Shown here piece by piece: positions 525 through 64,000 of a stretch of DNA of 64,000 nucleotides. A model generated the notes under the pieces. The model saw nothing but the letters and a program-made list of their open reading frames with translations, had not been told where the DNA came from and made no database searches. Each line of letters starts with the position of its first letter. The first letter of the stretch is position 1. Where the stretch lies: assembly GCF_045037415.1 (NCBI RefSeq), contig NZ_CP173438.1. One strand, written 5' to 3'. The translations under genes and the position numbers were made by a program. The DNA comes from Escherichia coli (GTDB taxonomy: Bacteria; Pseudomonadota; Gammaproteobacteria; Enterobacterales; Enterobacteriaceae).

Positions 525-619
525 TGGCGGAAGATCACAGGAGTCGAACCTGCCCGGGACCGCTGGCGGCCCCAACTGGATTTGAAGTCCAGCCGCCTCA
601 CCGGAGACGACGATCTTCC
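525..619 (-). tRNA. selC: tRNA-Sec (selenocysteine, anticodon UCA), 95 nt with encoded CCA
   Basis: Reverse complement of 525..619 reads GGAAGATCGTCGTCTCCGGTGAGGCGGCTGGACTTCAAATCCAGTTGGGGCCGCCAGCGGTCCCGGGCAGGTTCGACTCCTGTGATCTTCCGCCA, matching the E. coli selC sequence as I recall it, including the long extra arm and 8-bp acceptor stem. Confidence 0.93.
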
Positions 620-4916: not shown

Positions 4917-6470
4917 ATGCAAATGATTACCTCGCGACAAAACAGATTATTACGATTCCTTTTACCTCGAAGGGAATATACGACTATTGTTACGATTGCC
5001 GGCTATTTAAATGTTTCGGAAAAAACCATTCAACGTGATTTACGTTTACTTGAGCAATGGCTGGGACAATGGAGAATAAATGTTGAGAAGCGTGCTGGCG
5101 CGGGTGTGATGTTAAGCGCGGAGAATATTGCTGATTTGCTGCATCTTGATCATTTGTTGGTGGCAGAATGTGAAGAGATTGATGGTGTAATGAATAATGC
5201 CAGGCGCGTTAAAATAGCGTCGCAGTTATTAAGTGAAACACCGAATGAAACGTCGATCAGTAAATTGTCAGAACGCTATTTTATCAGCGGAGCCTCTATT
5301 GTTAATGACCTGAGAGTAATTGAGTCCTGGCTTGCGCCGTTGGGGTTATCGTTGATCCGCAGCCCAAGTGGTACGCATATTGAAGGTAGTGAAGGGCAAG
5401 TCCGACAGGCAATGGCATTACTGATTAACGGCATTATTAACCATAATGAGCCGCAAGGTGTCGTGTATTCACGTCTGGATCCCGGAAGCTATAAAGCATT
5501 AGTCCATTATTTTGGAGAGGAAGAAGTGTTATTTGTCCAGTCATTGTTACTGGATATGGAAAATGAATTAAGTTGGTCTTTGGGAGAACCTTATTACGTT
5601 AACATTTTTACTCATATCCTTATTATGATGTATCGCAACACGCACGGGAATGCGTTATCAAGAGAAGAAGATCAAACCAGGCAATATGATGAAAATATCT
5701 TTAATGTTGCCAGTCAGATGATTCATAAGATAGAACAACGAATTGCACATACATTGCCCGATGATGAAGTCTGGTTTATTTATCAATATATCATTTCATC
5801 AGGTGTGGCGATTGATGGACAAAAAGATGTTAGCATTATTTCACATATGCAGGCCAGCAATGAAGCGCGTCTGATTACCTGGCGTTTAATTACGGTATTC
5901 AGTGACATCGTGGACTGCGATTTTAGTGAAGACAGCGCATTATATGATGGCTTATTGGTGCATATTAAACCGCTGATTAACCGACTAAATTATCGTATTC
6001 ATATCCGTAATCCATTGCTGGAAGATATTAAAGCAGAATTAGCGGATGTCTGGCGGTTGACGCAATATGTGGTGAATCAGGTATTTAAAACCTGGGGTGA
6101 GAATGCGGTGAGCGAGGATGAAGTGGATTACCTGACCGTTCATTTTCAGGCTGCGATGGAACGGCAAATTGCCCGTAAACGCGTATTACTGGTCTGTTCA
6201 ACCGGAATCGGAACTTCGCATCTACTGAAAAGCCGTATTCTGCGAGCATTTCCTGAATGGACGATTGTTGATGTTATTTCAGCAGCGAATTTATCACAGG
6301 TTTTGCCTGACAATATCGAACTGATTATTTCGACCATTAATTTGCCTACAGTCACTATGCCGGTCGCTTATGTTACCGCTTTTTTTAATGATGCCGATAT
6401 TAAGCGGGTCACTGAAATGGTGATTACGGAAAAATTACATCATGCGACGTCTCGGGTCGTTGAAATTTAA
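4917..6470 (+). CDS. PRD-containing, PTS-regulated transcriptional activator (MtlR/LicR-like): N-terminal HTH, PRD region, C-terminal EIIB(Gat)-like domain
   Basis: 517-aa ORF; N-terminal HTH-like segment (TIVTIAGYLNVSEKTIQRDLRLLEQWL); C-terminal RKRVLLVCSTGIGTSHLLKSRI resembles the phosphorylatable Cys loop of galactitol-type EIIB domains found in PRD activators; AT-rich gene heading a PTS operon. Confidence 0.6.
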   Translation: MQMITSRQNRLLRFLLPRREYTTIVTIAGYLNVSEKTIQRDLRLLEQWLGQWRINVEKRAGAGVMLSAENIADLLHLDHLLVAECEEIDGVMNNARRVKIASQLLSETPNETSISKLSERYFISGASIVNDLRVIESWLAPLGLSLIRSPSGTHIEGSEGQVRQAMALLINGIINHNEPQGVVYSRLDPGSYKALVHYFGEEEVLFVQSLLLDMENELSWSLGEPYYVNIFTHILIMMYRNTHGNALSREEDQTRQYDENIFNVASQMIHKIEQRIAHTLPDDEVWFIYQYIISSGVAIDGQKDVSIISHMQASNEARLITWRLITVFSDIVDCDFSEDSALYDGLLVHIKPLINRLNYRIHIRNPLLEDIKAELADVWRLTQYVVNQVFKTWGENAVSEDEVDYLTVHFQAAMERQIARKRVLLVCSTGIGTSHLLKSRILRAFPEWTIVDVISAANLSQVLPDNIELIISTINLPTVTMPVAYVTAFFNDADIKRVTEMVITEKLHHATSRVVEI

Positions 6471-6496
6471 TGTCAGAATTTTATGAGGTATGACGA

Positions 6497-6967
6497 ATGG
6501 ACATAACAAAAATCCTGAATACGAATCGCGTTATTTTAGATATGCAAGCGACGAATAAAGCGGAGGCGATTGAAGAATTAACTAATCTTCTCAAAAAAGA
6601 TGGTGCGATCGATTGTCGGGAAACCTTTATTAAAGATGTCTGGCAGCGCGAAGCGGAAGGCTCGACTGGTTTTGAAAATCATATTGCGATCCCGCATGGT
6701 AAATCTTCAGCTGTGATTAATACTACGCTGGCAATTGGCCGTACCCGCCAGGATATTCCCTGGGAAACGCTGGATGGCAGTAGCGTGCGCTGTATTATTT
6801 TATTTGCGGTACGTCTTGAAGATCAAAATACCACCCATATCCGTTTACTTTCCCAGGTCGCGGGCGCGCTGGCGGATGATGACATCATAGAACAATTGTT
6901 AGTTGAGACGAGTCCGCAAAAAATCATTGATCTCTTTAGTCAGTATGCACAATCCGATGTCTGCTAA
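6497..6967 (+). CDS. PTS EIIA component, fructose/mannitol (type 2) family
   Basis: 156-aa ORF with the EIIA-2 His motif context (NHIAIPHGKS); RBS-spaced 26 nt after the regulator gene. Confidence 0.7.
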   Translation: MDITKILNTNRVILDMQATNKAEAIEELTNLLKKDGAIDCRETFIKDVWQREAEGSTGFENHIAIPHGKSSAVINTTLAIGRTRQDIPWETLDGSSVRCIILFAVRLEDQNTTHIRLLSQVAGALADDDIIEQLLVETSPQKIIDLFSQYAQSDVC

Positions 6968-6984
6968 ATAACAGGGAGTATGTC

Positions 6985-7299
6985 ATGAATATTGTCTGTG
7001 TTGCCGCCTGTACGGCGGGTATTGCTCATACCTATATTGCTCGTGAAAAGTTAATCAAAGGAGCAAAAGCTCTGGGCCATACCATTAAAGTTGAAACCCA
7101 GGGAACCATTGGTACAGAAAATGAATTACAGGCGGCAGATATCTCTGCTGCTGACGTCGTGATTCTTGCTGTAGATGTGAAAATAAAAGGAGAAGAACGC
7201 TTCACCAATAAACGTATTGTGCGAGTAAAGACAGAGATCGTCATTAAGTCGCCCGTTCAATTTCTTGAAAAGGTCGAAAAATCACTGGGAAACAAATGA
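6985..7299 (+). CDS. PTS EIIB component, fructose-type
   Basis: 104-aa ORF; N-terminal active-site Cys loop (NIVCVAACTAGIAHT) typical of fructose-family EIIB (FrwB-like). Confidence 0.7.
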   Translation: MNIVCVAACTAGIAHTYIAREKLIKGAKALGHTIKVETQGTIGTENELQAADISAADVVILAVDVKIKGEERFTNKRIVRVKTEIVIKSPVQFLEKVEKSLGNK

Positions 7300-7323
7300 T
7301 CCTTATACTGGAGGGATCTTAAT

Positions 7324-8415
7324 ATGAAAGAAAATAAAATTACGGTTTCACAGGAAATTAAAAAACATTTATTAACCGGCATCTCGTGGATGATACCCCT
7401 TATTGTGGCCGCCGGGATATGTATTGCGTTGGGGCAAGTTCTTGGCGGTACAGATGTTGGTGAAAAAACAGGAACAATCCCGTGGATGCTTAATCAGATT
7501 GGCGGCTGGGGAATGGGGCTGATTGTGCCGCTGATTAGCGCGGCAATTGCCTATTCTATTGCCGATCGTCCCGGATTTGCCCCGGGCCTGATTGTCGGCT
7601 TTCTCTGTGGGCAAATCCATACCGGATTTATTGGCGGTATGTTGGGTGGTTTCCTGGTGGGCTACACCATTTTGCTACTTAAACGCTATATCCGCCTGCC
7701 GCAGTCGATGCAAGGACTCATGCCAATCATGGTGTTGCCGGTATTAAGCACCATTATCGGTGGGCTGTTAATGATGACGCTGATTGGTAAACCCATCGCC
7801 TGGTTACAAGAAGCACTGATTCATTTGCTCGAGTCGATGCAGGGCGGATCGCGCTTCCTGATGGGGGCCATACTTGGCGCGATGGCAACCTTCGATTTCG
7901 GTGGTCCGGTCAACAAAACCATGTCGCTGTTTTCCGATGGCTTGCTGGTCAGTGGCGTCTACGGACCAGAAGCCGTGAAATTTGTCGGCTCAATCATCCC
8001 TCCGTTTGGCATCACACTTTCGTTCTTACTGACACGCCATAAATACACCCGTGCGGAGCGCGAGGCGCTGAAAGCCGCGTTTCCGATGGGGATCTGCATG
8101 ATTACTGAAGGAGTCATTCCGATCGCCGCGCGTGACCTACTGCGAGTAGTGGGATCTTGTGTGGTGGCATCGGCGGTCGCGGGCGGCTTAATCATGGTGT
8201 GGGGCGTGGAGAGTCCGGTTCCGCATGGCGGCATGTTTGTTGTGCCTCTGTTCACCCATCCTCTGCTGTTTTGCCTGGCGCTGGGTATAGGCACGGTGAT
8301 TTGTGGCGTGATGCTTTCACTCTGGAAGAAACCGGTAACGGAACGCGACGAAGAGTTTGACGAACTGAGCGATCAAAAGCTGAAAGATGAAGAGATCACT
8401 TTCACCCTCGAATAA
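7324..8415 (+). CDS. PTS EIIC permease, fructose-like family
   Basis: 363-aa polytopic membrane ORF, similar in size and hydropathy pattern to FrwC-type IIC; follows the IIA and IIB genes. Confidence 0.7.
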   Translation: MKENKITVSQEIKKHLLTGISWMIPLIVAAGICIALGQVLGGTDVGEKTGTIPWMLNQIGGWGMGLIVPLISAAIAYSIADRPGFAPGLIVGFLCGQIHTGFIGGMLGGFLVGYTILLLKRYIRLPQSMQGLMPIMVLPVLSTIIGGLLMMTLIGKPIAWLQEALIHLLESMQGGSRFLMGAILGAMATFDFGGPVNKTMSLFSDGLLVSGVYGPEAVKFVGSIIPPFGITLSFLLTRHKYTRAEREALKAAFPMGICMITEGVIPIAARDLLRVVGSCVVASAVAGGLIMVWGVESPVPHGGMFVVPLFTHPLLFCLALGIGTVICGVMLSLWKKPVTERDEEFDELSDQKLKDEEITFTLE

Positions 8416-8426
8416 CCGGAGGCCCT

Positions 8427-9278
8427 ATGTTTGCCGATATGAAAAGTATGGTGATGAAAGCCTGGCATGAACATTACGCCTTGCTGGCGATCAACTGTAT
8501 GAATCTGGAAAGTGCTCACGCAGCTATCCGCGTGGCGGAGAAGAATCGCGCTCCGATCATTCTCAATCTCTATCAGGGGCATCTGGCGCATTTTCCTGCA
8601 CCCGTCGCGGCGGCAGTGGTTAAAACGCTCGCGGAATCTGCCTCAGTACCGGTCGCTCTGGCGCTTGATCATGGCAAAAATCCGGACTGTATTCGTCAGG
8701 CGTTTCGTGCTGGTTTCAGCGGATTAATGATTGATGCTTCTGCTTTTCCCCTGGAGGAAAACGTGCGCCAGACCAGGGCGGTGGTGGAACTCGCCGCCAG
8801 CGCGCAGCTCTGCGTGGAAGGCGAACTGGGCCATCTGGCAGATGCGCCGCGTTACGACCAGGCCGCCAATGCAGACCTGATGACGCAACCCACTGATGTG
8901 GAACCGTTTATCGCGCAGACAGGCATTGATCTACTGGCCGTCTCGGTAGGCACGGCGCACGGCATGTACGCGCCTGGCGTTGTACCTGCTATTGATTTTC
9001 AGCGTCTGGCGGAGATTTTCCACTGCTCGAGCGTGCCTCTGGCATTACATGGCGGTAGCGGTACGCCGTTCGATCAGCTCCAGCTCTGTACGACTCTGGG
9101 GGTAGCAAAAATCAACGTGGGGGCGGCCATTTTTGAACGGGGGAAATCCGCGCTCCTGCATACCCTCTGTCACGATATATCCATTGAACTGGTGGACGCG
9201 CTGAAAGCTATGGAACTGGCCTTCGAAGAAGCGATTACACCGTATTTACAGGCGAGCGGCGCTATCGGCAAAGCCTGA
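8427..9278 (+). CDS. Class II ketose-bisphosphate aldolase family protein (paralogue 1, divergent N-terminus)
   Basis: 283-aa ORF retaining class II aldolase metal/catalytic motifs (LALDHG, VEGELG, GTAHG, LHGGSG) but with an N-terminal region diverged from the canonical substrate-binding motif. Confidence 0.6.
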   Translation: MFADMKSMVMKAWHEHYALLAINCMNLESAHAAIRVAEKNRAPIILNLYQGHLAHFPAPVAAAVVKTLAESASVPVALALDHGKNPDCIRQAFRAGFSGLMIDASAFPLEENVRQTRAVVELAASAQLCVEGELGHLADAPRYDQAANADLMTQPTDVEPFIAQTGIDLLAVSVGTAHGMYAPGVVPAIDFQRLAEIFHCSSVPLALHGGSGTPFDQLQLCTTLGVAKINVGAAIFERGKSALLHTLCHDISIELVDALKAMELAFEEAITPYLQASGAIGKA

Positions 9279-9358
9279 TTCATTTTCTGTCATGGCCTTT
9301 ATGCCAGTGCAATAACGCACCGGCAGGGCGGACTACACGCTGAAACTGGAGATTTAAC

Positions 9359-31433: not shown

Positions 31434-31604
<171 letters not shown>

Positions 31605-31628
31605 TTTCCGCTTTGATGTAACAAAAAA

Positions 31629-31651
31629 CCTCGCCCCGGCGGGGTTTTTTG
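31629..31651 (+). terminator. Intrinsic terminator after rpmB-rpmG
   Basis: A-run, GC-rich hairpin CCCCGGCGGGG, then six T, 25 nt downstream of the rpmG stop. Confidence 0.5.
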
Positions 31652-31701
31652 TTATCTGCTTGCCCCCATATTGACTGCATCTGTTCATTCCTGGAGATGC
31701 T

Positions 31702-32549: not shown

Positions 32550-34314
<1,765 letters not shown>

Positions 34315-34666
34315 AGTAAATAGCTGACTTATGGATGTGCTGGGGATTCTATGTATTTAGCTGTGGCTTTACCATTACTTTTCCCGTTTTTGACTTAAAT
34401 AGCAATTTACCCGCCAATTCTTGCTGAACATCTATACTTTTTTTGTATTTTTATGCGATTCATTGATTTCTGCAGTACGTGCAGGAAGGAATCGCAGAGC
34501 AACAGTAAAAAGAATATGGTTGCTAATGATTTTATTTGATTGATTTCTTTATTGAAAATCAACAATGTGCTTAAAAATCATTCGGGTCGGATTGCCGCGA
34601 AAGAAGTGATACACTAGCGCGTCAATATCAGTGCGGTATCAGTATTCAGGTAGCTGTTGAGCCTGG

Positions 34667-34678
34667 GGCGGTAGCGTG
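34667..34678 (+). promoter_or_regulatory. ops element (GGCGGTAGCGTG) within the JUMPstart region upstream of the waaQ operon; RfaH recruitment site
   Basis: Exact 12-nt match GGCGGTAGCGTG about 50 nt upstream of the waaQ start, in the 413-bp divergent waaA-waaQ intergenic region. Confidence 0.65.
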
Positions 34679-34727
34679 CTTTTTCTGCTTCACCTTAATC
34701 GGATAATCTCAACAAAAAGAGTTACTT

Positions 34728-35786
34728 GTGGATAAGCCATTTCGAAGAATTTTGCTCATTAAGATGCGTTTTCATGGGGATATGTTATTAACTACTCCCG
34801 TCATTAGTTCGCTGAAAAAAAATTACCCTGACGCAAAAATCGATGTGCTGCTTTATCAGGACACCATCCCGATCCTGTCTGAAAATCCAGAGATTAACGC
34901 GCTCTACGGCATAAAAAATAAAAAAGCAAAAGCCTCAGAAAAAATTGCCAACTTTTTTCATCTCATCAAGGTATTACGTGCCAATAAGTATGACCTTATC
35001 GTTAATCTTACCGATCAATGGATGGTTGCTATACTGGTTCGCTTATTAAATGCCCGTGTGAAAATTTCCCAGGATTATCATCATCGGCAGTCTGCTTTTT
35101 GGCGTAATAGTTTCACTCATTTGGTGCCGTTGCAGGGTGGAAATGTGGTGGAAAGTAACTTATCCGTGCTGACGCCATTGGGACTTGAATCGTTGGTGAA
35201 GCAGACAACCATGAGTTACCCGCCTGCAAACTGGAAACGTATGCGTCGCGAACTTGATCACGCTGGTGTTGGACAAAATTATGTGGTTATCCAACCTACG
35301 GCGCGGCAAATCTTCAAATGCTGGGACAACGCCAAGTTTTCCGCTGTGATTGATGCCTTACATGCTCGTGGTTATGAAGTCGTTCTGACGTCCGGCCCAG
35401 ATAAAGACGATCTGGCCTGCGTCAATGAAATTGCGCAGGGATGCCAGACGCCACCAGTAACGGCGCTGGCCGGAAAGGTGACCTTCCCGGAACTTGGTGC
35501 GTTAATCGATCATGCGCAGCTGTTTATTGGCGTTGATTCCGCACCGGCGCATATTGCCGCTGCAGTTAATACGCCGCTGATATCGCTGTTTGGTGCGACG
35601 GACCATATTTTCTGGCGTCCCTGGTCAAATAACATGATTCAATTCTGGGCGGGAGATTACCGGGAAATGCCAACGCGCGATCAGCGTGACCGAAATGAGA
35701 TGTATCTTTCGGTTATTCCGGCGGCAGATGTCATTGCAGCTGTCGATAAATTACTTCCCTCCTCCACGACAGGTACGTCGTTATGA
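34728..35786 (+). CDS. waaQ: LPS heptosyltransferase III
   Basis: 352-aa ORF, GT9 heptosyltransferase family; first gene of the long core operon. Confidence 0.88.
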   Translation: MDKPFRRILLIKMRFHGDMLLTTPVISSLKKNYPDAKIDVLLYQDTIPILSENPEINALYGIKNKKAKASEKIANFFHLIKVLRANKYDLIVNLTDQWMVAILVRLLNARVKISQDYHHRQSAFWRNSFTHLVPLQGGNVVESNLSVLTPLGLESLVKQTTMSYPPANWKRMRRELDHAGVGQNYVVIQPTARQIFKCWDNAKFSAVIDALHARGYEVVLTSGPDKDDLACVNEIAQGCQTPPVTALAGKVTFPELGALIDHAQLFIGVDSAPAHIAAAVNTPLISLFGATDHIFWRPWSNNMIQFWAGDYREMPTRDQRDRNEMYLSVIPAADVIAAVDKLLPSSTTGTSL

Positions 35787-36907
35787 TCGTTGCTTTTTGT
35801 TTATATAAATATTTTCCCTTTGGCGGTTTGCAGCGCGATTTTATGCGTATTGCTCAGACAGTCGCCGCCCGAGGCCATCATGTTCGGGTTTATACCCAGT
35901 CGTGGGAAGGCGAATGCCCTGATGTATTTGAACTGATCAAAGTGCCGGTTAAATCGCATACCAATCACGGGCGCAATGCGGAATATTTTGCCTGGGTGCA
36001 AAAACATTTACGTGAACACCCCGTCGATAGAGTTGTTGGATTTAATAAAATGCCGGGGCTGGACGTTTATTATGCCGCTGATGTTTGTTATGCCGAGAAA
36101 GTAGCGCAGGAGAAAGGCTTTTTCTATCGCCTGACGTCACGTTATCGCCATTATGCTGCCTTTGAGCGGGCAACCTTCGAACAGGGCAAGCCGACACAGC
36201 TGCTGATGCTGACAGATAAGCAAATCGCCGATTTCCAGAAACATTATCAGACTGAAGCGGAACGTTTTCATATTCTGCCACCGGGGATTTATCCTGATCG
36301 TAAATATAGCCAGCAGCCAGCCAATAGCCGTGAAATCTTCCGTAAGAAGAATGGAATAACCGAACAACAATATTTATTGTTGCAGGTTGGTTCAGACTTC
36401 ACGCGTAAAGGTGTCGATCGTTCCATTGAAGCACTTGCTTCGTTACCGGATTCGCTGCGCCACAACACATTGCTATATGTTGTTGGGCAGGATAAACCGC
36501 GAAAATTTGAGGCGCTGGCAGAAAAACGCGGCGTGCGCAGTAATGTTCACTTCTTCTCGGGGCGCAACGATGTCTCGGAATTAATGGCGGCGGCGGATTT
36601 ATTACTTCATCCTGCCTACCAGGAAGCCGCGGGAATTGTACTGCTGGAAGCGATAACTGCAGGATTACCGGTACTAACAACAGCCGTTTGTGGCTATGCG
36701 CATTATATTGTTGACGCCAATTGCGGCGAGGCTATTGCTGAGCCATTCCGCCAGGAAACATTGAATGAGATTTTACGCAAAGCGTTAACGCAATCTTCAT
36801 TGCGCCAGGCCTGGGCGGAAAATGCGCGACATTATGCTGATACACAAGATTTATACAGTCTGCCAGAGAAAGCGGCGGACATCATAACGGGTGGTCTGGA
36901 TGGTTGA
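35783..36907 (+). CDS. waaG: LPS core glucosyltransferase I
   Basis: 374-aa ORF, GT4 family; start overlaps the waaQ stop (ATGA). Confidence 0.9.
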
Positions 36908-37697
36908 ACTTAAAGAGCCGTTTGCCACGTTATGGCGCGGTAAAGATCCTTTTGAGGAAGTTAAAACCTTGCAGGGTGAGGTATTTCGTGAACTGGAAAC
37001 TCGCCGCACTCTGCGCTTTGAAATGGCGGGCAAAAGCTATTTTCTCAAATGGCATCGCGGCACGACCCTGAAAGAGATAATCAAAAATTTACTCTCATTG
37101 CGGATGCCAGTATTAGGCGCAGACCGCGAATGGAATGCGATTCATCGACTGCGGGATGTCGGCGTTGATACTATGTATGGGGTGGCATTCGGCGAAAAAG
37201 GCATTAATCCGCTGACCAGAACCTCGTTTATTATTACCGAAGATCTGACACCAACCATCAGTCTGGAAGATTACTGTGCTGACTGGGCGACCAACCCACC
37301 AGATGTTCGCGTGAAGCGTATGCTTATTAAGCGTGTCGCGACGATGGTGCGCGATATGCATGCTGCGGGCATTAACCACCGTGACTGTTATATCTGTCAT
37401 TTCCTGCTGCACTTGCCTTTTTCCGGTAAGGAAGAGGAGTTAAAAATTTCAGTAATTGACCTGCACCGGGCGCAGATACGTGCAAAAGTACCGCGTCGTT
37501 GGCGGGATAAAGATTTGATTGGTTTGTATTTTTCATCAATGAATATTGGGCTGACGCAGAGAGATATCTGGCGATTTATGAAGGTTTATTTTGGGATGCC
37601 TTTACGTAAGATATTATCTTTTGAACGGAATTTATTGAACATGGCAAGTGTTAAGGCCGAGCATATTAAAGAGCGAACACAACGCAAAGGATTATAA
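36900..37697 (+). CDS. waaP: LPS core heptose(I) kinase
   Basis: From [21 protein letters not shown] gives 265 aa; kinase-like fold. Confidence 0.9.
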
Positions 37698-37733
37698 AAA
37701 TATTAATCAGTATGTACTGGAACTAACTTCATT

Positions 37734-38669
37734 ATGACTATTTATTTTATAAACTGGGTTGCAGATTATGAATTAAAAATGATCCAGTACTTGAAAAAAA
37801 AGCACAAGATAAAAAATATAACAACACCAAAAAAATACAACTGGGTTAATAAGAAAATTTCGAAATTAGGGATGGATAATGCATGGTTGGGACGATTATT
37901 TATCAAACATCACCTAAATGCTGTAAAAAAGGATGATATCATTATATTTAATGACAGTGTCATTAATAAAAGTATTAACAAGCAAATATTAAAAAATATT
38001 AATTGTCATAAAGTATTACTTCTAAGAAATACTGTCAGTGAAAATTTTATTTTTGATAACGCTAATTATTTTGATATTATCTATGATTTTGAGCATAGAT
38101 TTATAGGGAATGAAAAGATCAAGGCAATAGAACAATTTTTTCCTATAGGAATGGATGAAATTAGAAATTATAGTTTATCTGACAAAAATAACAGTCAGCC
38201 AATATGTTTTTTTCTTGGTCGTGATAAAGGACGTCTTCAAATAATTAATGAATTAGCCGATAGATTAACAACACTAGGATGTAAGTTAGATTTTAATGTT
38301 GTCAAAGATAAAACATCATCTCCGACTTCAAAGTATTTGATTGAAAAACAAATATCGTATGAAGAGAATATTAGAAGAACATTAAATGCTAATATAATTG
38401 TTGATATAACTAAAGAAAACCAATCTGGCTGGACTCTTCGTATACTTGAGGCACTATTTTTCAATAAAAAATTAATTACTAATAATATAAATGTACTTGG
38501 TTCGGAAATCTATAGTGAGTCTCGCTTTTTTATAATAGGTCATGATGATTGGGATAAGTTAGAGTATTTTATTAATTCATCTGTTAAACCAATGGATTAT
38601 GATAGTTTATATAAATTCAGCCCTGATAAAATGATGTCAACAATTGTTTATGATTTTATAGAAAAATAA
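37734..38669 (+). CDS. waaS: LPS core biosynthesis protein WaaS (K-12-type core)
   Basis: 311-aa ORF in a markedly AT-rich gene at the position waaS occupies in the K-12-type core cluster. Confidence 0.8.
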
Positions 38670-38712
38670 AACCGTTAAAACAGTGAGTTTTACTCAATTA
38701 ATGAGAGTTTCA

Positions 38713-39792
38713 ATGAAAATAGCATTTATCGGCGAAGCTGTTTCTGGATTTGGCGGCATGGAAACGGTCATTCGTGATGTTATTACTACCTTCAGGCAAC
38801 AACATATCTATAGTGAAATGTTTTTCTTTTGTCGTAATGATAAAATGGATAAGGGATGGCTGGAAGGTATTAAGTACTCGTGTTCATTTTCCAATATTCG
38901 CTTAGGTTTTTTGCGTCGGGCGAAACATATTCATGCTTTAAGCAAATGGCTTCAAGATTATCAGCCAGATGTTGTTATTTGTATTGACGTTATCTCGTGT
39001 TTGTATGCGGCCAAAGCACGTAAAAAATCAGGAATTGATGTGCCAGTATTTTCATGGCCGCATTTTTCTTTAGATCACAAAAAACATGCTGAATATATCA
39101 CCTGTGCAGACTATCATTTAGCCATCAGCTCTGGCATTAAACAGCAAATGATTAATCGGGGTGTACCAGAATCGACGATAAATGTTATTTTTAATCCAGT
39201 CGAAGCTAAAGACACAGTCATTCCTGGGCCTGAGGAAGGTGAAACGGCAACGTTCATTTATGTTGGGCGTATGAAATTCGAGGGCCAGAAGAGGGTTAAA
39301 GACCTGCTTGATGGTTTATCACAAGCGCAAGGTGACTGGAAACTCCATGTACTGGGTGATGGTTCTGATTTTGAAAAATGCCAGGCATATGGTAGAGAAT
39401 TGAAGATTGATAATCGAATTGTCTGGCATGGTTGGCAAAAACATCCATGGGAGGTAGTGCGTCAGGATATTAAGAAAGTCAGTGCATTGTTATTAACCTC
39501 ATCTTTTGAAGGTTTTCCAATGACCTTACTTGAATCGATGTCATGGGGGATTCCGTGTATCAGTGCCGATTGTGTCTCCGGTCCTGGTGACATTATTCAA
39601 CCTGATGTCAATGGCCATTTGTATCAACCGGGAGATATTGCTGGTTTTGTTACTCTTCTAAATAAATATATAGCAGGTGAAATTCATATCGAACATGAAA
39701 AAATTCCTGCGTCGATCGATAAGTTTTATCAATCTAAGTATTATGATAGATTACATAATATAATTATTTCTGCTATTTCCCGGAGGAAATAA
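38713..39792 (+). CDS. waaB: LPS core alpha-1,6-galactosyltransferase
   Basis: From MKIAFIGEAVSGFGGMETV gives 359 aa, GT4 family. Confidence 0.85.
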   Translation: MKIAFIGEAVSGFGGMETVIRDVITTFRQQHIYSEMFFFCRNDKMDKGWLEGIKYSCSFSNIRLGFLRRAKHIHALSKWLQDYQPDVVICIDVISCLYAAKARKKSGIDVPVFSWPHFSLDHKKHAEYITCADYHLAISSGIKQQMINRGVPESTINVIFNPVEAKDTVIPGPEEGETATFIYVGRMKFEGQKRVKDLLDGLSQAQGDWKLHVLGDGSDFEKCQAYGRELKIDNRIVWHGWQKHPWEVVRQDIKKVSALLLTSSFEGFPMTLLESMSWGIPCISADCVSGPGDIIQPDVNGHLYQPGDIAGFVTLLNKYIAGEIHIEHEKIPASIDKFYQSKYYDRLHNIIISAISRRK

Positions 39793-40811
39793 TGCAGCAG
39801 GTATTTTTCCAGGAAACTGAGTATCTAAATTCAGTTATTGATTATAATCATAAAGTAGAAACAGAAAATCTTTGTCTGGACATCGCTTATGGAACTGACA
39901 AAAACTTTCTATTTGGTTGCGGAATTTCGATTGCTTCAATATTAAAGTATAATGAAGGAAGTCGGTTGTGTTTTCACATTTTTACTGATTATTTTGGTGA
40001 TAATGATCGTAAGTATTTTGATGCCCTGGCGTTACAGTATAAAACCAGAATTAAAATATATCTGATTAATGGTGATCGACTGCGCTCATTGCCTAGCACA
40101 AAGAACTGGACTCATGCAATATATTTTCGTTTTGTTATTGCTGATTACTTTATTAGTAAGGTGGCTAAAGTCCTTTATCTGGATGCAGATATCATTTGTC
40201 AGGGGACTATTGAGCCACTAATTAAATTCTCATTTCCTGACGATAAAGTCGCAATGGTTGTTACAGAAGGGCAAGCTGACTGGTGGGAAAAACGCGCCCA
40301 TTCGTTAGGTGTTGCGGGAATTTCTAAAGGTTACTTTAACTCCGGTTTTTTATTGATTAATACTGCCAAATGGGCAGCTCAGCAGGTTTCTGCACGAGCC
40401 ATTGCAATGCTAAATGAGCCAGAAGTAATCAAAAAAATAACACATCCTGATCAGGATGTATTAAATATGTTGCTGGCAGATAAACTTATTTTCGCTGATA
40501 TTAAATATAACACCCAGTTTAGCTTAAATTATCAACTAAAAGAAAGCTTTATAAACCCAGTAACCAACAATACTATTTTTATCCATTATATCGGGCCAAC
40601 CAAGCCCTGGCATGATTGGGCCTGGGATTATCCTGTATCACAAGCCTTTATGGAGGCAAAAAATGCTTCGCCATGGAAGAATACAGCGTTGCTGAAACCG
40701 AACAATAGCAATCAATTAAGATATAGCGCAAAACATATGCTTAAAAAACATAGATATCTAAAAGGATTTAGCAACTATCTTTTTTATTTTATTGAAAAGA
40801 TAAAGCATTAA
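39792..40811 (+). CDS. waaO: LPS core alpha-1,3-glucosyltransferase (GT8)
   Basis: 339-aa ORF, GT8 family (rfaI); start overlaps the waaB stop. Confidence 0.85.
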   Translation: MQQVFFQETEYLNSVIDYNHKVETENLCLDIAYGTDKNFLFGCGISIASILKYNEGSRLCFHIFTDYFGDNDRKYFDALALQYKTRIKIYLINGDRLRSLPSTKNWTHAIYFRFVIADYFISKVAKVLYLDADIICQGTIEPLIKFSFPDDKVAMVVTEGQADWWEKRAHSLGVAGISKGYFNSGFLLINTAKWAAQQVSARAIAMLNEPEVIKKITHPDQDVLNMLLADKLIFADIKYNTQFSLNYQLKESFINPVTNNTIFIHYIGPTKPWHDWAWDYPVSQAFMEAKNASPWKNTALLKPNNSNQLRYSAKHMLKKHRYLKGFSNYLFYFIEKIKH

Positions 40812-40850
40812 AACTGGGAAACAATAAAGTAATGATATAAGGGTAGCATT

Positions 40851-41867
40851 GTGGACTCATTTCCTGCCATAGAGATAGATAAAGTTAAAGCCTGGGATTT
40901 TCGGCTGGCTAATATAAATACTTCTGAATGTTTAAATGTTGCCTATGGTGTCGATGCTAATTATCTTGATGGTGTAGGTGTTTCCATTACATCAATTGTC
41001 CTAAATAATCGACATATTAATCTTGATTTTTATATTATTGCTGATGTTTATAATGATGCTTTTTTCCAAAAAGTTGCAAAGCTTGCAGAGCAATACCAAT
41101 TAAGAATCACATTATATAGAATTAACACTGATAAGCTCCAGTGCTTGCCTTGTACACAGGTCTGGTCAAGAGCAATGTACTTCCGTTTATTTGCATTTCA
41201 ATTATTGGGTTTAACACTTGATCGTTTGCTTTATCTTGATGCAGATGTTGTTTGTAAAGGCGATATTAGCCAACTATTGCATCTGGATTTAAACGGCGCG
41301 GTTGCTGCTGTTGTTAAAGATGTTGACCCAATGCAGGAAAAGGCGGCATCCAGGTTGTCTGATCCAGAATTACTCGGGCAGTACTTTAATTCCGGTGTCG
41401 TTTATTTAGATTTAAAAAAATGGGCTAACGCAAAACTAACAGAAAAAGCGTTGTCTATTCTTATGAGTAAAGATAATGTGTATAAATACCCTGATCAAGA
41501 TGTTATGAATGTCTTACTGAAAGGGATGACAATATTTTTGCCTCGTGGATATAATACAATTTATACAATTAAAAGTGAATTAAAAGACAAAACACATCAA
41601 AACTATAAAAAGCTGATTATAGAAAATACTCTTCTTATTCATTATACAGGTGCAACTAAACCGTGGCACAAATGGGCAATTTATCCATCGACAAAATACT
41701 ATAAAATAGCTTTAGACAATTCCCCCTGGAAAGATGACTCTCCACGAGATGCGAAATCAATTATTGAATTCAAAAAAAGATATAAACATCTTTTAGTGCA
41801 ACATCACTATATCTCAGGAATTATAGCAGGAGTCTGTTATCTTTGCCGAAAATATTACCCTAAATAA
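40851..41867 (+). CDS. waaJ: LPS core alpha-1,2-glucosyltransferase (GT8; rfaJ, also called waaR in K-12)
   Basis: 338-aa ORF, GT8 paralogue of the preceding gene. Confidence 0.85.
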   Translation: MDSFPAIEIDKVKAWDFRLANINTSECLNVAYGVDANYLDGVGVSITSIVLNNRHINLDFYIIADVYNDAFFQKVAKLAEQYQLRITLYRINTDKLQCLPCTQVWSRAMYFRLFAFQLLGLTLDRLLYLDADVVCKGDISQLLHLDLNGAVAAVVKDVDPMQEKAASRLSDPELLGQYFNSGVVYLDLKKWANAKLTEKALSILMSKDNVYKYPDQDVMNVLLKGMTIFLPRGYNTIYTIKSELKDKTHQNYKKLIIENTLLIHYTGATKPWHKWAIYPSTKYYKIALDNSPWKDDSPRDAKSIIEFKKRYKHLLVQHHYISGIIAGVCYLCRKYYPK

Positions 41868-41884
41868 CATTTAACTGGTTTGTT

Positions 41885-42583
41885 ATGATTCAGAAGAGCA
41901 AGATCAAAGACTTGGTTGTTTTTACCGATGAAGAGAATTCAAAGTACCTCAATGTATTAAATGACTTCTTGTCTTATAATATAAATATCATCAAGGTTTT
42001 TCGTTCTATTGATGATACAAAAGTTATGCTTATTGATACCGATTACGGTAAATTGATTCTTAAGGTTTTTTCTCCGAAAGTTAAGCGTAACGAACGTTTC
42101 TTTAAGTCTCTGTTAAAAGGTGATTATTACGAACGCCTTTTTGTGCAAACTCAAAAAGTACGAAATGAAGGGTTAAATACACTCAATGATTTTTATTTAT
42201 TGGCTGAACGGAAAACCTTACGATTTGTCCATACTTATATCATGATCATCGAGTATATTGATGGTATAGAGTTATGTGATATGCCCGATATTGATGATTC
42301 GCTAAAAAATAAAATTCAACAATCAATTAATGCCTTGCATAAACATGGCATGGTTTCTGGCGACCCTCATCGTGGTAACTTCATTATAAAAAATGGTGAG
42401 GTCCGAATTATTGATCTCTCTGGAAAACGTGCTTCAGCGCAGCGTAAAGCGAAAGATCGCATTGACTTAGAGCGTCATTACGGTATTAAAAATGAGATTA
42501 AAGATCTAGGCTATTATCTTTTAGTATATCGTAAAAAAATGCGCAATTTTATGCGGCGTTTGAAAGGGAAACCAGCTCGCTAA
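41885..42583 (+). CDS. waaY: LPS core heptose(II) kinase
   Basis: 232-aa ORF, kinase-like (HKHGMVSGDPHRGNFI). Confidence 0.85.
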   Translation: MIQKSKIKDLVVFTDEENSKYLNVLNDFLSYNINIIKVFRSIDDTKVMLIDTDYGKLILKVFSPKVKRNERFFKSLLKGDYYERLFVQTQKVRNEGLNTLNDFYLLAERKTLRFVHTYIMIIEYIDGIELCDMPDIDDSLKNKIQQSINALHKHGMVSGDPHRGNFIIKNGEVRIIDLSGKRASAQRKAKDRIDLERHYGIKNEIKDLGYYLLVYRKKMRNFMRRLKGKPAR

Positions 42584-42652
42584 AAAAATCCCACAATTAC
42601 ATGTCTTCACCAGGACAGTTTTAAGCGGAGTTATTTATTTCACAGGTTTATC

Positions 42653-43504
42653 ATGAAGAATATTAGATATATTGACAAAAAAGATGTTGAAAACCTGATT
42701 GAAAATAAAACATCTGATGATGTTATTATTTTTCTTTCGGGCCCTACATCGCAAAAAACACCTTTGTCAGTATTACGAACAAAGGATATTATTGCTGTCA
42801 ATGGTTCTGTGCAATATCTGTTAAGTCATAATATCGTTCCTTTTATATATGTACTTACAGATGTCCGCTTTTTACATCAGCGTCGTGATGATTTTTATAA
42901 ATTTAGCCAGAGAAGCCGTTATACCATAGTAAACGTTGACGTTTATGAACATGCTTCCAAAGAAGATAAACTTTATATCCTCCAGAACTGCCTCGTATTA
43001 CGGTCCTTTTATCGCCGGGAAAAAGGTGGTTTTATAAAGAAGATTAAATTTAATATATTGAGTCAGATTCACAAAGAACTGCTGATCTCTGTACCGTTGT
43101 CTAAAAAAGGTCGTCTGGTTGGATTTTGCAAGGACATTAGTTTTGGTTATTGTTCATGCCATACTATTGCCTTTGCTGCAATTCAAATAGCATATTCACT
43201 TAAGTATGCACGGATTATTTGTTCTGGTCTTGATTTAACGGGTAACTGCTCTCGTTTCTATGACGAAAATAATAATCCCATGCCCTCGGAATTGAGTAAG
43301 GATTTATTCAAAATCTTGCCATTTTTCCGTTTTATGCGTGATAATGTAGAAGATATTAATATCTATAATTTATCAGATGATACAGCTATTTCTTACGATG
43401 TAATTCCATTTATTAAATTTCAAGATATCAGTAGAGAAGAATCAAAAGATAAGACAAGAAAAAAAATGCAATATAGAACTTCAACTGATTCTTATGCTAA
43501 TTAA
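42653..43504 (+). CDS. waaZ: LPS core biosynthesis protein WaaZ (KdoIII addition)
   Basis: 283-aa ORF, AT-rich, K-12 core position. Confidence 0.8.
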   Translation: MKNIRYIDKKDVENLIENKTSDDVIIFLSGPTSQKTPLSVLRTKDIIAVNGSVQYLLSHNIVPFIYVLTDVRFLHQRRDDFYKFSQRSRYTIVNVDVYEHASKEDKLYILQNCLVLRSFYRREKGGFIKKIKFNILSQIHKELLISVPLSKKGRLVGFCKDISFGYCSCHTIAFAAIQIAYSLKYARIICSGLDLTGNCSRFYDENNNPMPSELSKDLFKILPFFRFMRDNVEDINIYNLSDDTAISYDVIPFIKFQDISREESKDKTRKKMQYRTSTDSYAN

Positions 43505-43536
43505 TCATCCTGAAACTAAAGTAATATGGTATAAAA

Positions 43537-44610
43537 ATGCGTTTAGGAACTTTTCACAAAAAGAAAAGATTTTATATAAACAAAATAAAAATTAATTTCC
43601 TTTCTTTTTTATTTCGTAAAAAAATAAATAATCAAATTACAGAACCAGCGCAAGTTAATTCATGTCTTATTATTCATGATAATAATAAGCTCGGTGATCT
43701 AATTGTATTAAGTTCGATTTATCGTGAACTTTATAGTAAAGGGGTTAAAATAACCATTCTTACAAATAGTAAGGGTGGGGCGTTTCTCTCTAACAATAAA
43801 AATATATTTGAGTTCTGTATTAAAGAATCAACCGGTTTCCTTAAAATGCTTACTCTATGTAAGCATCTGCGGGATTTGCAGTTCGATATTGTATTAGACC
43901 CCTTTGAAACCATGCCCTCATTTAAGCATAGTTTAATATTATCAAGTTTAAAAGATTCTTACATTCTGGGTTTTGATCAATGGTATAAACGTTACTATTC
44001 ATTTTACCATCCCCACGATGAATGTTTAAAAGAACATATGAGTACACGAGCAACAGAAATACTGAAGCATATTTATGGTGAGGGTGAATTCTCCACCGAC
44101 TACGACTTGCATTTACCAGTAGATGTTGAAGATAAAATAAAAGAATTTATTGGAGATACAAGAATAGTCATTATTAACCCATTAGGTGCAAAAAAAATAT
44201 GCCGACTTACGTTTGAGCAAATAAAAGTTATATATCAAGAAATGAAACTACACTTTGAAAATTATCGGGTGATATTTACCGGGTTACCGCAAGATTTATT
44301 GACAATACCAATACCTGAAATCGAAACACTACCATTTAATGAGTTTATTTATACCGTTGCGTTGACCAAGTATAGTGATTTTGTCATTTCTGTTGATACA
44401 GCTCTTGTTCATATCGCTGCGGCTTATCATAAACCAACGCTTGCATTTTATCCTAATTCACGTACTCCGGAATATCCCTCACATTTAATTTGGTCCCCAA
44501 ATAATCATAAATCAATACAAATAGTATCCCCAACATTTACGGTGAAAGATATCGATACTGAAACTTTAACTGATTCAGTAAAGAGATTAAGTTGTATAGA
44601 TAAGAAGTGA
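43537..44610 (+). CDS. waaU: LPS core heptosyltransferase IV (rfaK)
   Basis: 357-aa ORF, GT9-like; last gene of the operon. Confidence 0.8.
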   Translation: MRLGTFHKKKRFYINKIKINFLSFLFRKKINNQITEPAQVNSCLIIHDNNKLGDLIVLSSIYRELYSKGVKITILTNSKGGAFLSNNKNIFEFCIKESTGFLKMLTLCKHLRDLQFDIVLDPFETMPSFKHSLILSSLKDSYILGFDQWYKRYYSFYHPHDECLKEHMSTRATEILKHIYGEGEFSTDYDLHLPVDVEDKIKEFIGDTRIVIINPLGAKKICRLTFEQIKVIYQEMKLHFENYRVIFTGLPQDLLTIPIPEIETLPFNEFIYTVALTKYSDFVISVDTALVHIAAAYHKPTLAFYPNSRTPEYPSHLIWSPNNHKSIQIVSPTFTVKDIDTETLTDSVKRLSCIDKK

Positions 44611-44635
44611 GTTTTAACTCACTTCTTAAACTTGT

Positions 44636-45901
44636 TTATTCTTGATTAATAGTATTGTTACGATTATTAATAACGAGTAAGAGGACTATAGCGGATATAA
44701 CGATAATTGGAATGCTGCGTGCCCATATGATCACATCACTGAGTCCAATCCCCACAATGCCAAGCGTTAATATCAACAAACCCAAAGCTCGTCTTTTATA
44801 TGCTGTATAAAACAGTGAAAAATAGAGGAAAAGGATGGAAATAATTCCCATCAGACCTTTCAGTGACCCTGCTTCAATTATCTCATTATGTAGATGTACG
44901 TTAGAAAACTCCAATGCCCCTCTTAGCCTGTTGTGTTCTGCAACTAACAAATTCATATTTTCAGCGCGTGACTCTGCTGATCTAAATGAAAAAGGTGACT
45001 TTATGAATATATTTAAACCAATTTCGTACATTGCCAGTCTTGCACCTAGGGAAGTCACGCTATTAGCATTGGTATAACTGTTTAAATCATTTAATGCTTC
45101 ATTATAGCGATTCTGTATTGGTTTATTAAATATAATTACTATGCTAGCTAATATAGCAATTAGTAGAACAATAGAGGAAGTGAATTTCTTGGGTGATTTA
45201 TTATAATAAGCTATTAATGCAGCAACACAAATTATAGGGAACAGGAGTAGGGTTGCTCTGGTTTGTGTTAGCGCCAGAACATAAAGTACCGCGCAACTAT
45301 TTAATAAAAATAAAAAAGGATGGTTTTTCTTAGTATAAAGAATCGCAACGCCACTAACTATCCCTATTAGCATAGTTGAATATGCTGCTCCTGTTGCCGT
45401 TCCTACACCAAAAGAAATGCGGTCATTTTCATGAATGCTATTAATATACATTGCATATCCAGCAATTAGAAATGACAGAGAATATAAAGTGTATAATACA
45501 CTCTCTTTTTTTGATTTTAGCTGGCTAGTTAGTGTCAAGAAAACAATAAAAGAACCAAATATAAAAATTTTGGCAGTATTTAAATAACTATGGTAAGTAG
45601 CACGAAATGGCGAATTATCTATTTTAAACGCAGAATACCAAATTAAATCAAGTAAGCCTATTAAAAATATAGAAAGGGGAAGAATAAGGTTTTTTATATT
45701 ATAATTTTCTTGTCTGCCACGTAAAATTAGTGCCACTAAGCAAACTATAGCAGTGATATTATATATTTTTATGCTGAAAGTATTATCAACGAATGCAATT
45801 ATCATTGAAAAAAAACATAATATATAAGTTATTATCTCTAAAATCATTGATGATTTAAGAGAGTAAGGTTTCAATGAATGAAGTTTAAAGGATGTTAGCA
45901 T
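44636..45901 (-). CDS. waaL: O-antigen ligase
   Basis: 421-aa highly hydrophobic ORF, AT-rich, convergent with waaU; start could be slightly downstream (K-12 WaaL is about 419 aa by recollection). Confidence 0.85.
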   Translation of the reverse strand: MLTSFKLHSLKPYSLKSSMILEIITYILCFFSMIIAFVDNTFSIKIYNITAIVCLVALILRGRQENYNIKNLILPLSIFLIGLLDLIWYSAFKIDNSPFRATYHSYLNTAKIFIFGSFIVFLTLTSQLKSKKESVLYTLYSLSFLIAGYAMYINSIHENDRISFGVGTATGAAYSTMLIGIVSGVAILYTKKNHPFLFLLNSCAVLYVLALTQTRATLLLFPIICVAALIAYYNKSPKKFTSSIVLLIAILASIVIIFNKPIQNRYNEALNDLNSYTNANSVTSLGARLAMYEIGLNIFIKSPFSFRSAESRAENMNLLVAEHNRLRGALEFSNVHLHNEIIEAGSLKGLMGIISILFLYFSLFYTAYKRRALGLLILTLGIVGIGLSDVIIWARSIPIIVISAIVLLLVINNRNNTINQE

Positions 45902-45910
45902 GTTTTACCT

Positions 45911-62422: not shown

Positions 62423-64000
62423 TAAGGAATCATCCACGTTAAGACATAGGCCTGAAGCGTGGTGATCACGCCCACCATACAGGTGAAGATCAGGCTGTGT
62501 TTGACAGTAAAGCGGAACAAATCAGACTCTTTGCCCACCAGGCCTACCGCCGCACAGGCGATAGCGATAGATTGCGGAGAGATCATTTTGCCGGTGACAC
62601 CACCGGTGGTGTTGGCAGCAACCAGCAACAGGTCAGAAACGCCAATTTGTTGTGCGGCGGTAGCCTGCAAAGCGGCAAACAAAGCATTAGATGACGTATC
62701 CGACCCGGTCAGGAATACCCCAAGCCAGCCGAGGAACGGCGAGAAGAAGGTGAATGCATGACCGGTGTGCGCCAGTGCCAGCGCCAGTGTTGATGACAAA
62801 CCGGAATAGTTCGAGATAAAGGCGAACGCCAGCACCATGCCGATGGAGTAGATAGGCAGAGCCAGTTCTTTCAGCGTGCTGCCGAAGGTGCTGATAGCGT
62901 CAGATGGTTTCATCTTCAGCCAGACAATCGAGAGCAGGGCAGCAAACAGAATGGCGGTACCGGTGGCAGAGAACCAGTCGAACTTAAACACGGCGGCATA
63001 CGCTGTCGCTTCGCTGACCACTGGCGGCATACGGGCAACCAGTTTATCGAGGTACGGCACCGGAATGTTGATCACCCACTCATACAGCGCACCGCCTGAA
63101 GTGAACAGGGCTTTAAACGGCGGGATACTCCACAGTGTTACGGTGGCGGTCAGGAACAGGAACGGTGTCCAGGCGCGCAGCACCTGACCTGCCGTGTAAC
63201 CTGTGTGAGCCAGCGTCATATCAACCTGTGACGCCCCTAAGTCACCGAAGCGGAATACGCGCACGGGTTGCCAGCGTTTGAGGAACAGTGTCAGACAGAG
63301 CAGCGATACCAGCGAAGAGATAATGTCTGGCAGTTCCGGCCCAATAAAGTTAGAGCTGAGGTATTGAGCGATGGCAAACGACCCGCCCGCAACCACGACC
63401 GCAGGCCAGGTTTCTTTGATACCGCGCCAGCCGTCCATAATCGCCATGATCCAGAACAGCACGATAATGGTCATAAACGGCAGCTGACGCCCCACCATCT
63501 GACCAATCTCAAAGCTGTCGATGCCTGTTACCTGCCCGGCGACCAGAATCGGAATACCCATCGCACCAAATGCCACTGGCGCGGTGTTAACAATCAGGCA
63601 CAGCCCGGCGGCGTACAGCGGTTTAAAGCCCAGGCCGACCAGCAATGCGGCGGTAATTGCTACCGGTGCGCCAAAGCCTGCGGCTCCTTCAAGGAAAGCG
63701 CCGAAACAGAAACCGACGATCAGCATTTGCAGGCGCTGGTCAGGGGTTATCGAAAGAATAGACGAGCGGATGATGTCAAACTGCCCGGTTTTCACCGAGA
63801 TCTTATAGACGAACACCGCTGCAATAATGATCCACGCGATGGGCCACAACCCGTAGAAGAAGCCATAAACCACCGAGGCCAGCGCGTTAGCGACCGGCAT
63901 TTTATAGAACAGCAAAGCCACGGCAAGGGCGATTGCCACCGTCCATGAGGCGGCGACGTATCCTTTCAGTTTGAGCTTAATCAGCGCAAAGAAGAAAAAC
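62422..64000 (-). CDS. lldP: L-lactate permease, C-terminal ~525 codons; 5' end lies beyond the right edge of the window
   Basis: ORF open to the window end; C-terminus ...[11 protein letters not shown] matches LldP; full length is about 551 aa, so about 26 codons are missing. Confidence 0.9.

Follow-up and report, generated by a model that had tools for sequence, protein, structure and literature searches.

A perfect ops site in the JUMPstart leader of the Escherichia coli waaQ operon as a very probable RfaH loading site

The ops element is defined as the 12-nt sequence GGCGGTAGCGTG with the 8-nt core GGCGGTAG, in which G4, G5, A7 and G8 are essential and C3 and T6 are important (PMC5995543). 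It acts as a consensus pause, with RNA polymerase (RNAP) halting at C9 and U11, and bases 3 to 8 of its non-template strand form a small hairpin that is read by RfaH (PMC5995543). In the published work on the rfa/waa operon, ChIP places RfaH at the single leader ops and along the rest of the operon, which is coated by H-NS/StpA; in ΔrfaH, RNAP occupancy falls steeply towards the distal genes. Mutations in rho, nusG and hns suppress the phenotypes of rfaH mutants, and a main reason for the need for RfaH is now seen in the silencing of the distal, AT-rich genes by H-NS/StpA. According to reviews by the discoverers of the small RNA RirA, RirA and the waaQ mRNA have a common start, RirA includes both ops and JUMPstart, and it binds RfaH and damps the system.

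Here, we compare these systems with the waaA–waaQ region of one E. coli chromosome, analysed within a 64-kb stretch of DNA (the window). Positions 34667–34678 are almost certainly the RfaH loading site of the waaQGPSBOJYZU lipopolysaccharide (LPS)-core operon, within its 5′ leader JUMPstart, and nothing in the sequence speaks against this reading. The motif, its context, its position on the transcript by homology mapping and its conservation come from our analysis, while RfaH binding, the pause, polarity, the involvement of H-NS and the activity of RirA are taken from the literature. The published RfaH binding and rfaH dependence refer to K-12 and CFT073, whose core element is identical or nearly identical to that of the window. 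RfaH-dependent antitermination of the waaQ operon, as first proposed for this DNA, thus agrees with the published ChIP signal from the leader ops, the distal loss of RNAP in ΔrfaH and the rho, nusG and hns suppressors. Since the waaQ ops/JUMPstart is already well described as an RfaH site, the window brings no novel biology. The value lies in annotation: the waaQ/rirA promoter and start, the ops pause site, the RirA equivalent and the proximal waaA promoter are placed on this allele, and the cross-genus survey adds natural cases of a decayed ops or a replaced leader.

The ops motif and its JUMPstart context

Two nested features define the element.

34667..34678, plus strand: ops, GGCGGTAGCGTG, exact match, at transcript positions +46 to +57; without variation among E. 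coli alleles, and with the exact sequence at 44 of 70 cross-genus loci
34640..34678, plus strand: JUMPstart (Rfam RF01707), with a stem between 34647–34651 and 34661–34665 and GGTAGC at 34649 and 34670

The exact 12-mer occurs once in the 64-kb window, and base composition predicts ~0.007 copies per window on both strands and ~3e-5 per 413-nt spacer. The original prediction of a perfect ops at this position holds, as the match is exact and each of the mutationally studied positions (C3, G4, G5, T6, A7, G8, C9, G10, T11 and G12) carries the wild-type base. The motif is on the plus strand, which is the non-template strand of waaQ, and lies downstream of the mapped 5′ end of RirA/waaQ (34622) and upstream of the start codon. 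It agrees with the consensus pause in T11 (34677), in G12 (34678) and in the G ten bases before the pause (34668), and RNAP is therefore expected to pause at 34677/34678. Folded as DNA, the minimum free energy (MFE) structure of ops pairs G2 with T11, C3 with G10 and G4 with C9, at an energy (−0.9 kcal/mol) that makes it little informative; the published hairpin has C3:G8. When up to one mismatch is allowed, the window holds three sites against 0.25 expected from shuffles. The two one-mismatch sites lie outside leaders, were rejected as functional sites and are not expected to load RfaH: 6776–6787 (plus strand, G4→A) lies inside a PTS IIA coding sequence, and 62656–62667 (plus strand, G10→C) lies on the template strand of lldP.

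A missing JUMPstart context on alignment had been named beforehand as the observation that would speak against the prediction. The context is present: RF01707, with a curated threshold of 35 bits, matches 34640–34678 over model positions 1–38 of 38 at 55.2 bits, its sole match in 64 kb, and the K-12 rfb leader can be aligned to the element base for base. The same model also matches K-12 waaQ, two other E. coli allele classes, K-12 rfb and a plasmid-borne O-antigen leader, with 53.1–60.5 bits. The element adjoins an LPS cluster, with waaQGPSBOJYZU directly downstream. A search of plasmids with the 47-nt core returned mainly chromosomes filed as plasmids, together with one plasmid-borne O-antigen leader, and at that sensitivity it returned no ops of F-like tra operons.

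The JUMPstart stem upstream of ops has five base pairs (CAGGU/GCCUG), which are 94.7% paired across 48 leaders from different genera, a sample whose counts, here and below, are not phylogenetically independent. Its second pair is A–U in waaQ versus U–A in the rfb copies, a compensatory difference, and G–U in some E. coli alleles. Such changes might suggest that the element acts mainly as RNA, with the JUMPstart hairpin and ops of RirA titrating or remodelling RfaH and with recruitment through DNA secondary here. The stem is indeed kept across genera by pairing-compatible changes, and the difference from rfb is compensatory. However, recruitment of RfaH by non-template DNA is established by structure and by ChIP, with the signal beginning at the waaQ leader, and the RirA phenotypes stem from overexpression. 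We therefore regard a mainly RNA-based action as improbable. The RNA and DNA roles are not exclusive, so an RNA role is better seen as a layer added to DNA-based loading of RfaH than as its rival.

The waaQ/rirA transcript and its leader

In MG1655, the small-RNA gene rirA (b4760, 73 nt) lies between waaQ and waaA, and it maps to 34622–34694 of the window with ~90% identity. The leader features that follow from this mapping and from the sequence are these.

34607..34615, plus strand: putative waaQ/rirA extended −10, TG-a-TACACT; 6 nt upstream of the mapped 5′ end of RirA and invariant in E. coli alleles
34622..34694, plus strand: RirA equivalent, from the MG1655 annotation and alignment; its 5′ end is the waaQ mRNA start by homology mapping
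34680..34684, plus strand: T-tract directly 3′ of ops, T5 here and T6 in K-12
34717..34730, plus strand: weak SD-like AAGAG, a 6-nt spacer and the waaQ GTG, read from the sequence

The ops falls within the rirA equivalent (34622–34694, plus strand). The original prediction was silent on rirA, and also on the extended −10 waaQ promoter and on H-NS/StpA silencing of the distal operon. From the MG1655 rirA annotation and the conservation of the promoter, we infer that waaQ transcription starts at ~34622; since transcripts seldom begin with a T, the base annotated at the 5′ end, the position may be 1–2 nt off. TGaTACACT would then be the extended −10 of the waaQ/rirA promoter, with 45 nt of transcript before ops. 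A TGnTAyAnT motif is found 49–58 nt upstream of ops in 47 of the 48 leaders, compared with ~0.013 expected per sequence. A generic sigma-70 and terminator scan of 34200–34850 returned 2 promoter-like sites versus 1.7 expected, and no terminator. A null result for promoters in the spacer is to be expected for an extended −10 promoter with a poor −35.

Two start codons have been annotated for waaQ, GTG at 34728 by PGAP/RefSeq versus an ATG in MG1655 that is equivalent to 34764, 36 nt downstream. GTG stands at the start of the WaaQ tblastn match in 42 of the 48 leaders, and the allele differences within 34728–34763 comprise 3 synonymous and 3 conservative changes. This conservation of GTG, along with the nature of the changes up to 34763, favours 34728 as the start. 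The distance from the end of ops to this GTG is 49 nt, within the 40–67 nt reported in the literature for wzx, kps and rfa. The weak AAGAG and the GTG start fit the proposed recruitment of the ribosome by RfaH.

The leader could also be read as an attenuator. In such a device, the ops RNA would pair with 34630–34643, and the resulting long hairpin and T-tract would terminate unmodified polymerase to give RirA, with RfaH-modified polymerase reading through. The MFE fold of 34622–34694 is in fact one long hairpin (34630–34680) ending at the T-tract, but its energy is no better than that of shuffled sequence (z = −0.46), and no terminator was found by the scan of 34200–34850. Across the 48 leaders, 91.5% of cells are paired compared with 28–54% in slid controls, a figure inflated by a structure that was derived from one aligned sequence and by a 3′ arm that is the invariant ops. 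Double changes are seen at two outer-stem pairs, but compatible and incompatible changes in the 5′ arm are about equal (43 versus 42 cells). In favour of the device, a T-tract follows ops in most waaQ leaders and in neither of two rfb-type leaders; against it, several genera lack the tract. In addition, the annotated 3′ end of RirA lies 14 nt past the stem, beyond the usual release position of an intrinsic terminator. On this balance, it is unlikely that the waaQ leader is an RfaH-sensitive attenuator with RirA as its terminated product. Should it be one, RfaH availability, read-through of the operon and production of an RfaH-damping RNA would be joined in one feedback device.

The divergent spacer, the waaQ operon and the course of RfaH action

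The spacer between waaA and waaQ covers 34315–34727 (413 bp), which matches the RefSeq/PGAP limits of waaA (start 34314, minus strand) and rfaQ/waaQ (GTG 34728, plus strand). Its GC content is 38.0%, compared with 49.2% in the window as a whole; of the 413-nt segments outside the waaS–waaL block, only ~1% are equally low. The original prediction had described a 413-bp AT-rich intergenic region that also carries the divergent waaA-coaD promoter. Gene limits and composition bear out the first part, and the second is matched by a validated start at 34338 (minus strand) with a conserved TAGAAT 7 nt before it. The ops/JUMPstart/RirA stretch itself has ~51% GC. On the waaA side and in the centre of the spacer, the features are as follows.

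33037..34314, minus strand: waaA (Kdo transferase), first gene of the waaA-coaD unit; NCBIfam NF004385, 905.7 bits, and RefSeq annotation of an identical stretch
34338, minus strand: proximal waaA-coaD transcription start, from MG1655 position 3,808,516 through an ungapped, identical K-12/window alignment
34346..34351, minus strand: putative proximal waaA −10, TAGAAT, at positions −13 to −8, 7 nt before the mapped start
34377..34391, minus strand: activator-like site AAAAACGGGAAAAGT from Reg-Seq, at −53 to −39, with no factor named; overlaps a conserved AAAAGTAATGGTAAAG block
34403..34573, no strand: variable central spacer, 32% GC, diverged between allele classes
34441..34469, no strand: conserved island, reading CAATGAATCGCATAAAAATACAAAAAAAG on the minus strand, kept between E. 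coli allele classes and in many genera

The Reg-Seq supplementary table gives MG1655 3,808,516 as one of two RegulonDB-validated start sites of waaA-coaD. TAGAAT at 34346–34351 (minus strand) would be the −10 hexamer of this proximal promoter; it lies within a highly conserved block, where 26 of the 28 sequences compared read TAGAAT and 2 read TAAAAT. The block just upstream of waaA, AAAAGTAATGGTAAAGCC...CTAAATACATAGAATCCCCAGCACAT, is kept in 28 of 28 sequences, including Siccibacter; a AAAAACGGGAAAAGTAATGGTAAAG block upstream of waaA is likewise conserved. Upstream of the waaA −10, AAAAACGGGAAAAGTAATGGTAAAGCC (34352–34376 and 34377–34391, minus strand) is likewise kept in the 28 sequences, and it overlaps the activator-like site of Reg-Seq. 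The island at 34441–34469 may be a candidate for the second, distal waaA promoter. The divergent waaQ and proximal waaA start sites are 284 bp apart.

Downstream of the leader lies the operon, followed by a hairpin.

34728..44610, plus strand: waaQ-G-P-S-B-O-J-Y-Z-U operon, ~10 kb, by annotation; a K-12-type core cluster
44601..44628, plus strand: 12-bp hairpin between the convergent waaU and waaL, terminator-like with a poor T-tract (AACTTGTTTA)

This hairpin is a likely, if tentative, end of the transcription unit. The distal 6.9 kb of the operon (waaS to waaU) has 33% GC, and the coding strand of the operon has 17.3% C, close to the literature value for the C-poor K-12 waa operon (17.4%). 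The low GC and low C fit RfaH targets as they have been described. From 37600 to 46000, waaS through waaL, GC falls sharply to 26–37%, with flanks at ~50%; this block looks like horizontally exchanged outer-core genes together with the H-NS-bound part of the operon.

Combining the mapped positions with the published mechanism, the following course of events can be proposed. RNAP would start at ~34622 from the extended −10 TGaTACACT (34607–34615) and, after ~56 nt, pause at T11/G12 of ops (34677/34678). In the paused complex, the non-template bases of ops would form the small hairpin recognised by RfaH, which would bind, open and remain on the polymerase through the rest of the operon. Bound RfaH would suppress pausing and exclude NusG, so that Rho termination is blunted, and would carry the polymerase across the H-NS/StpA-coated, AT-rich genes from waaS to waaU (33% GC). 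RfaH would also help to recruit the ribosome at the GTG with its weak SD, 49 nt downstream. Nucleotides 1–73 of the transcript would correspond to RirA, for which binding to RfaH and damping of the system have been reported. On the opposite side of the spacer, waaA-coaD would be transcribed from its separate promoter, with the start at 34338 (minus strand).

Several observations concern other parts of the window. Its left end (1–620) starts inside a RhuM-family 'virulence' gene that adjoins tRNA-Sec (selC, 529–619, minus strand). selC is a classic integration site for islands, and an island therefore probably abuts that end. Between yicI and yicH (~4918–11861) lie a BglG-type antiterminator, fructose-like PTS IIA, IIB and IIC components, two aldolases, a ROK protein and a lyxose/mannose isomerase, a cluster which we take to be absent from K-12 and to resemble the 'frz' operon of ExPEC. 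Sub-threshold Rfam matches to Leu_leader, istR, STnc370 and RNAI at 31547–31655 (plus strand) were rejected as not real members, since all of them coincide with a single strong hairpin of the terminator type, AAAAAACCUCGCCCCGGCGGGGUUUUUU, downstream of rpmG. Compared with the annotation of SK1144 (NZ_AP018784.2), the ORF coordinates show a one-base offset at ~6.5 kb and none at 34 kb; therefore, the window is either not exactly SK1144 or differs by a 1-nt indel.

Conservation and comparison with described leaders

Within E. coli, many complete genomes, SK1144 among them, match the 651 bases around ops with 100% identity. The spacer as a whole diverges: over the 413 bp, identity to the window is at least 99% in 4,365 records and only 60–80% in 946. 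The 47-nt core of JUMPstart and ops is found in 5,424 of 5,426 E. coli genomes, with at least 95% identity in all but 14 records, and rfaH, whose gene lies outside the window, is present in 5,425 of 5,426 complete genomes. An alignment of the window with K-12, M505, E400634 and an IS1-disrupted allele is nearly invariant from ~34574 to 34690, and the sole change inside JUMPstart/ops among those five alleles is the pairing-compatible A34648G. In E. coli SW07163, IS1 sits in the spacer ~100 bp upstream of the waaQ start; waaQ is thereby parted from waaA, and the promoter, JUMPstart and ops are intact.

A 12-mer in an intergenic region might be a functionless chance match, and the shortness of the motif is all that favours such an explanation. 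The ~3e-5 copies expected in the spacer and the full JUMPstart context stand against it, and it is refuted by the conservation data, namely near-invariance in over 5,400 genomes, in contrast to the divergence of the surrounding spacer, and the same position across ~20 genera. Its probability is thus negligible.

Across Enterobacterales, a WaaQ scan of species-representative genomes yielded 71 loci, 70 of them full-length. An exact ops lies 37–52 nt upstream of the WaaQ match in 44 of these 70 loci; a homologous leader with a variant ops occurs in 3, and 23 have no ops near waaQ. The genera with an exact ops include Escherichia, Salmonella, Citrobacter, Kluyvera, Cedecea, Kosakonia, Pluralibacter, Shimwellia and Leminorella, and the site is conserved at a like position across ~20 genera. 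The three variants are AGCAGTAGCGTA in Kluyvera cryocrescens (G1A, G4A and G12A), AGCGGTAGCGTA in Kluyvera intermedia (G1A and G12A) and GGCGGTAGCGTA in Citrobacter amalonaticus S646 (G12A). As G4 is essential, RfaH loading at waaQ may have been lost in K. cryocrescens. In Siccibacter turicensis and S. colletis, neither ops nor JUMPstart was found at waaQ, where an unrelated GC-rich leader is present instead; both species retain the divergent waaA–waaQ order and the extended −10 (TGGTACAAT). Given the decayed ops of K. cryocrescens and the replaced leader of Siccibacter, RfaH control of the LPS core may be evolutionarily dispensable.

The two Siccibacter species and the following loci make up the 23 without an ops near waaQ. 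Brenneria has an exact ops ~1.46 kb upstream of waaQ, and another gene therefore leads its operon. A one-mismatch ops lies ~1.3 kb upstream of waaQ in Superficieibacter sp. 1612_C1 and in the UBA5654 MAG, and the only match in Superficieibacter electus, also with one mismatch, is on the opposite strand. Providencia, Moellerella, Arsenophonus and Hartigia have no ops within 1.5 kb of waaQ, and their waaQ is without an adjacent waaA. An antisense ops 12-mer was also seen within waaG, the gene downstream of waaQ, exact in 2 loci and with one mismatch in 5, in several genera; it probably arises from the coding of a conserved protein motif, and at up to one mismatch the waaG of the window has none.

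How complete the LPS core becomes depends on the control of the waa operon by RfaH, which in this way affects outer-membrane integrity, tolerance to detergents and antibiotics, phage susceptibility and virulence. RfaH itself has been discussed as a drug target.

Among described systems, the MG1655 waaQ leader is the closest, with the same locus and gene order. Its 39-nt JUMPstart/ops and its extended −10 TGaTACACT are identical to those of the window, as are the 88 bp proximal to waaA, and RirA has 73 nt in both. Between the two RirA regions there are 5 substitutions and 2 single-base indels, with T6 versus T5 after ops among these differences, and the central spacer has diverged, such that K-12-type alleles reach only ~79% identity over the 413 bp. 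The O-antigen (rfb) leader of K-12, which precedes rfbB, has an identical 12-nt ops and shares the GGTAGC repeat and the hairpin with waaQ, and RF01707 matches it over its full length with 60.0 bits. Unlike waaQ, it has U–A at the second stem pair, no T-tract after ops and 75 nt, rather than 49 nt, between ops and the start codon. The hly, kps, wza and F-like tra leaders of pathogenic E. coli, compared here through the literature only, likewise carry a single leader ops on the non-template strand ahead of an H-NS-bound operon, and in hly the leader extends to ~600 nt.
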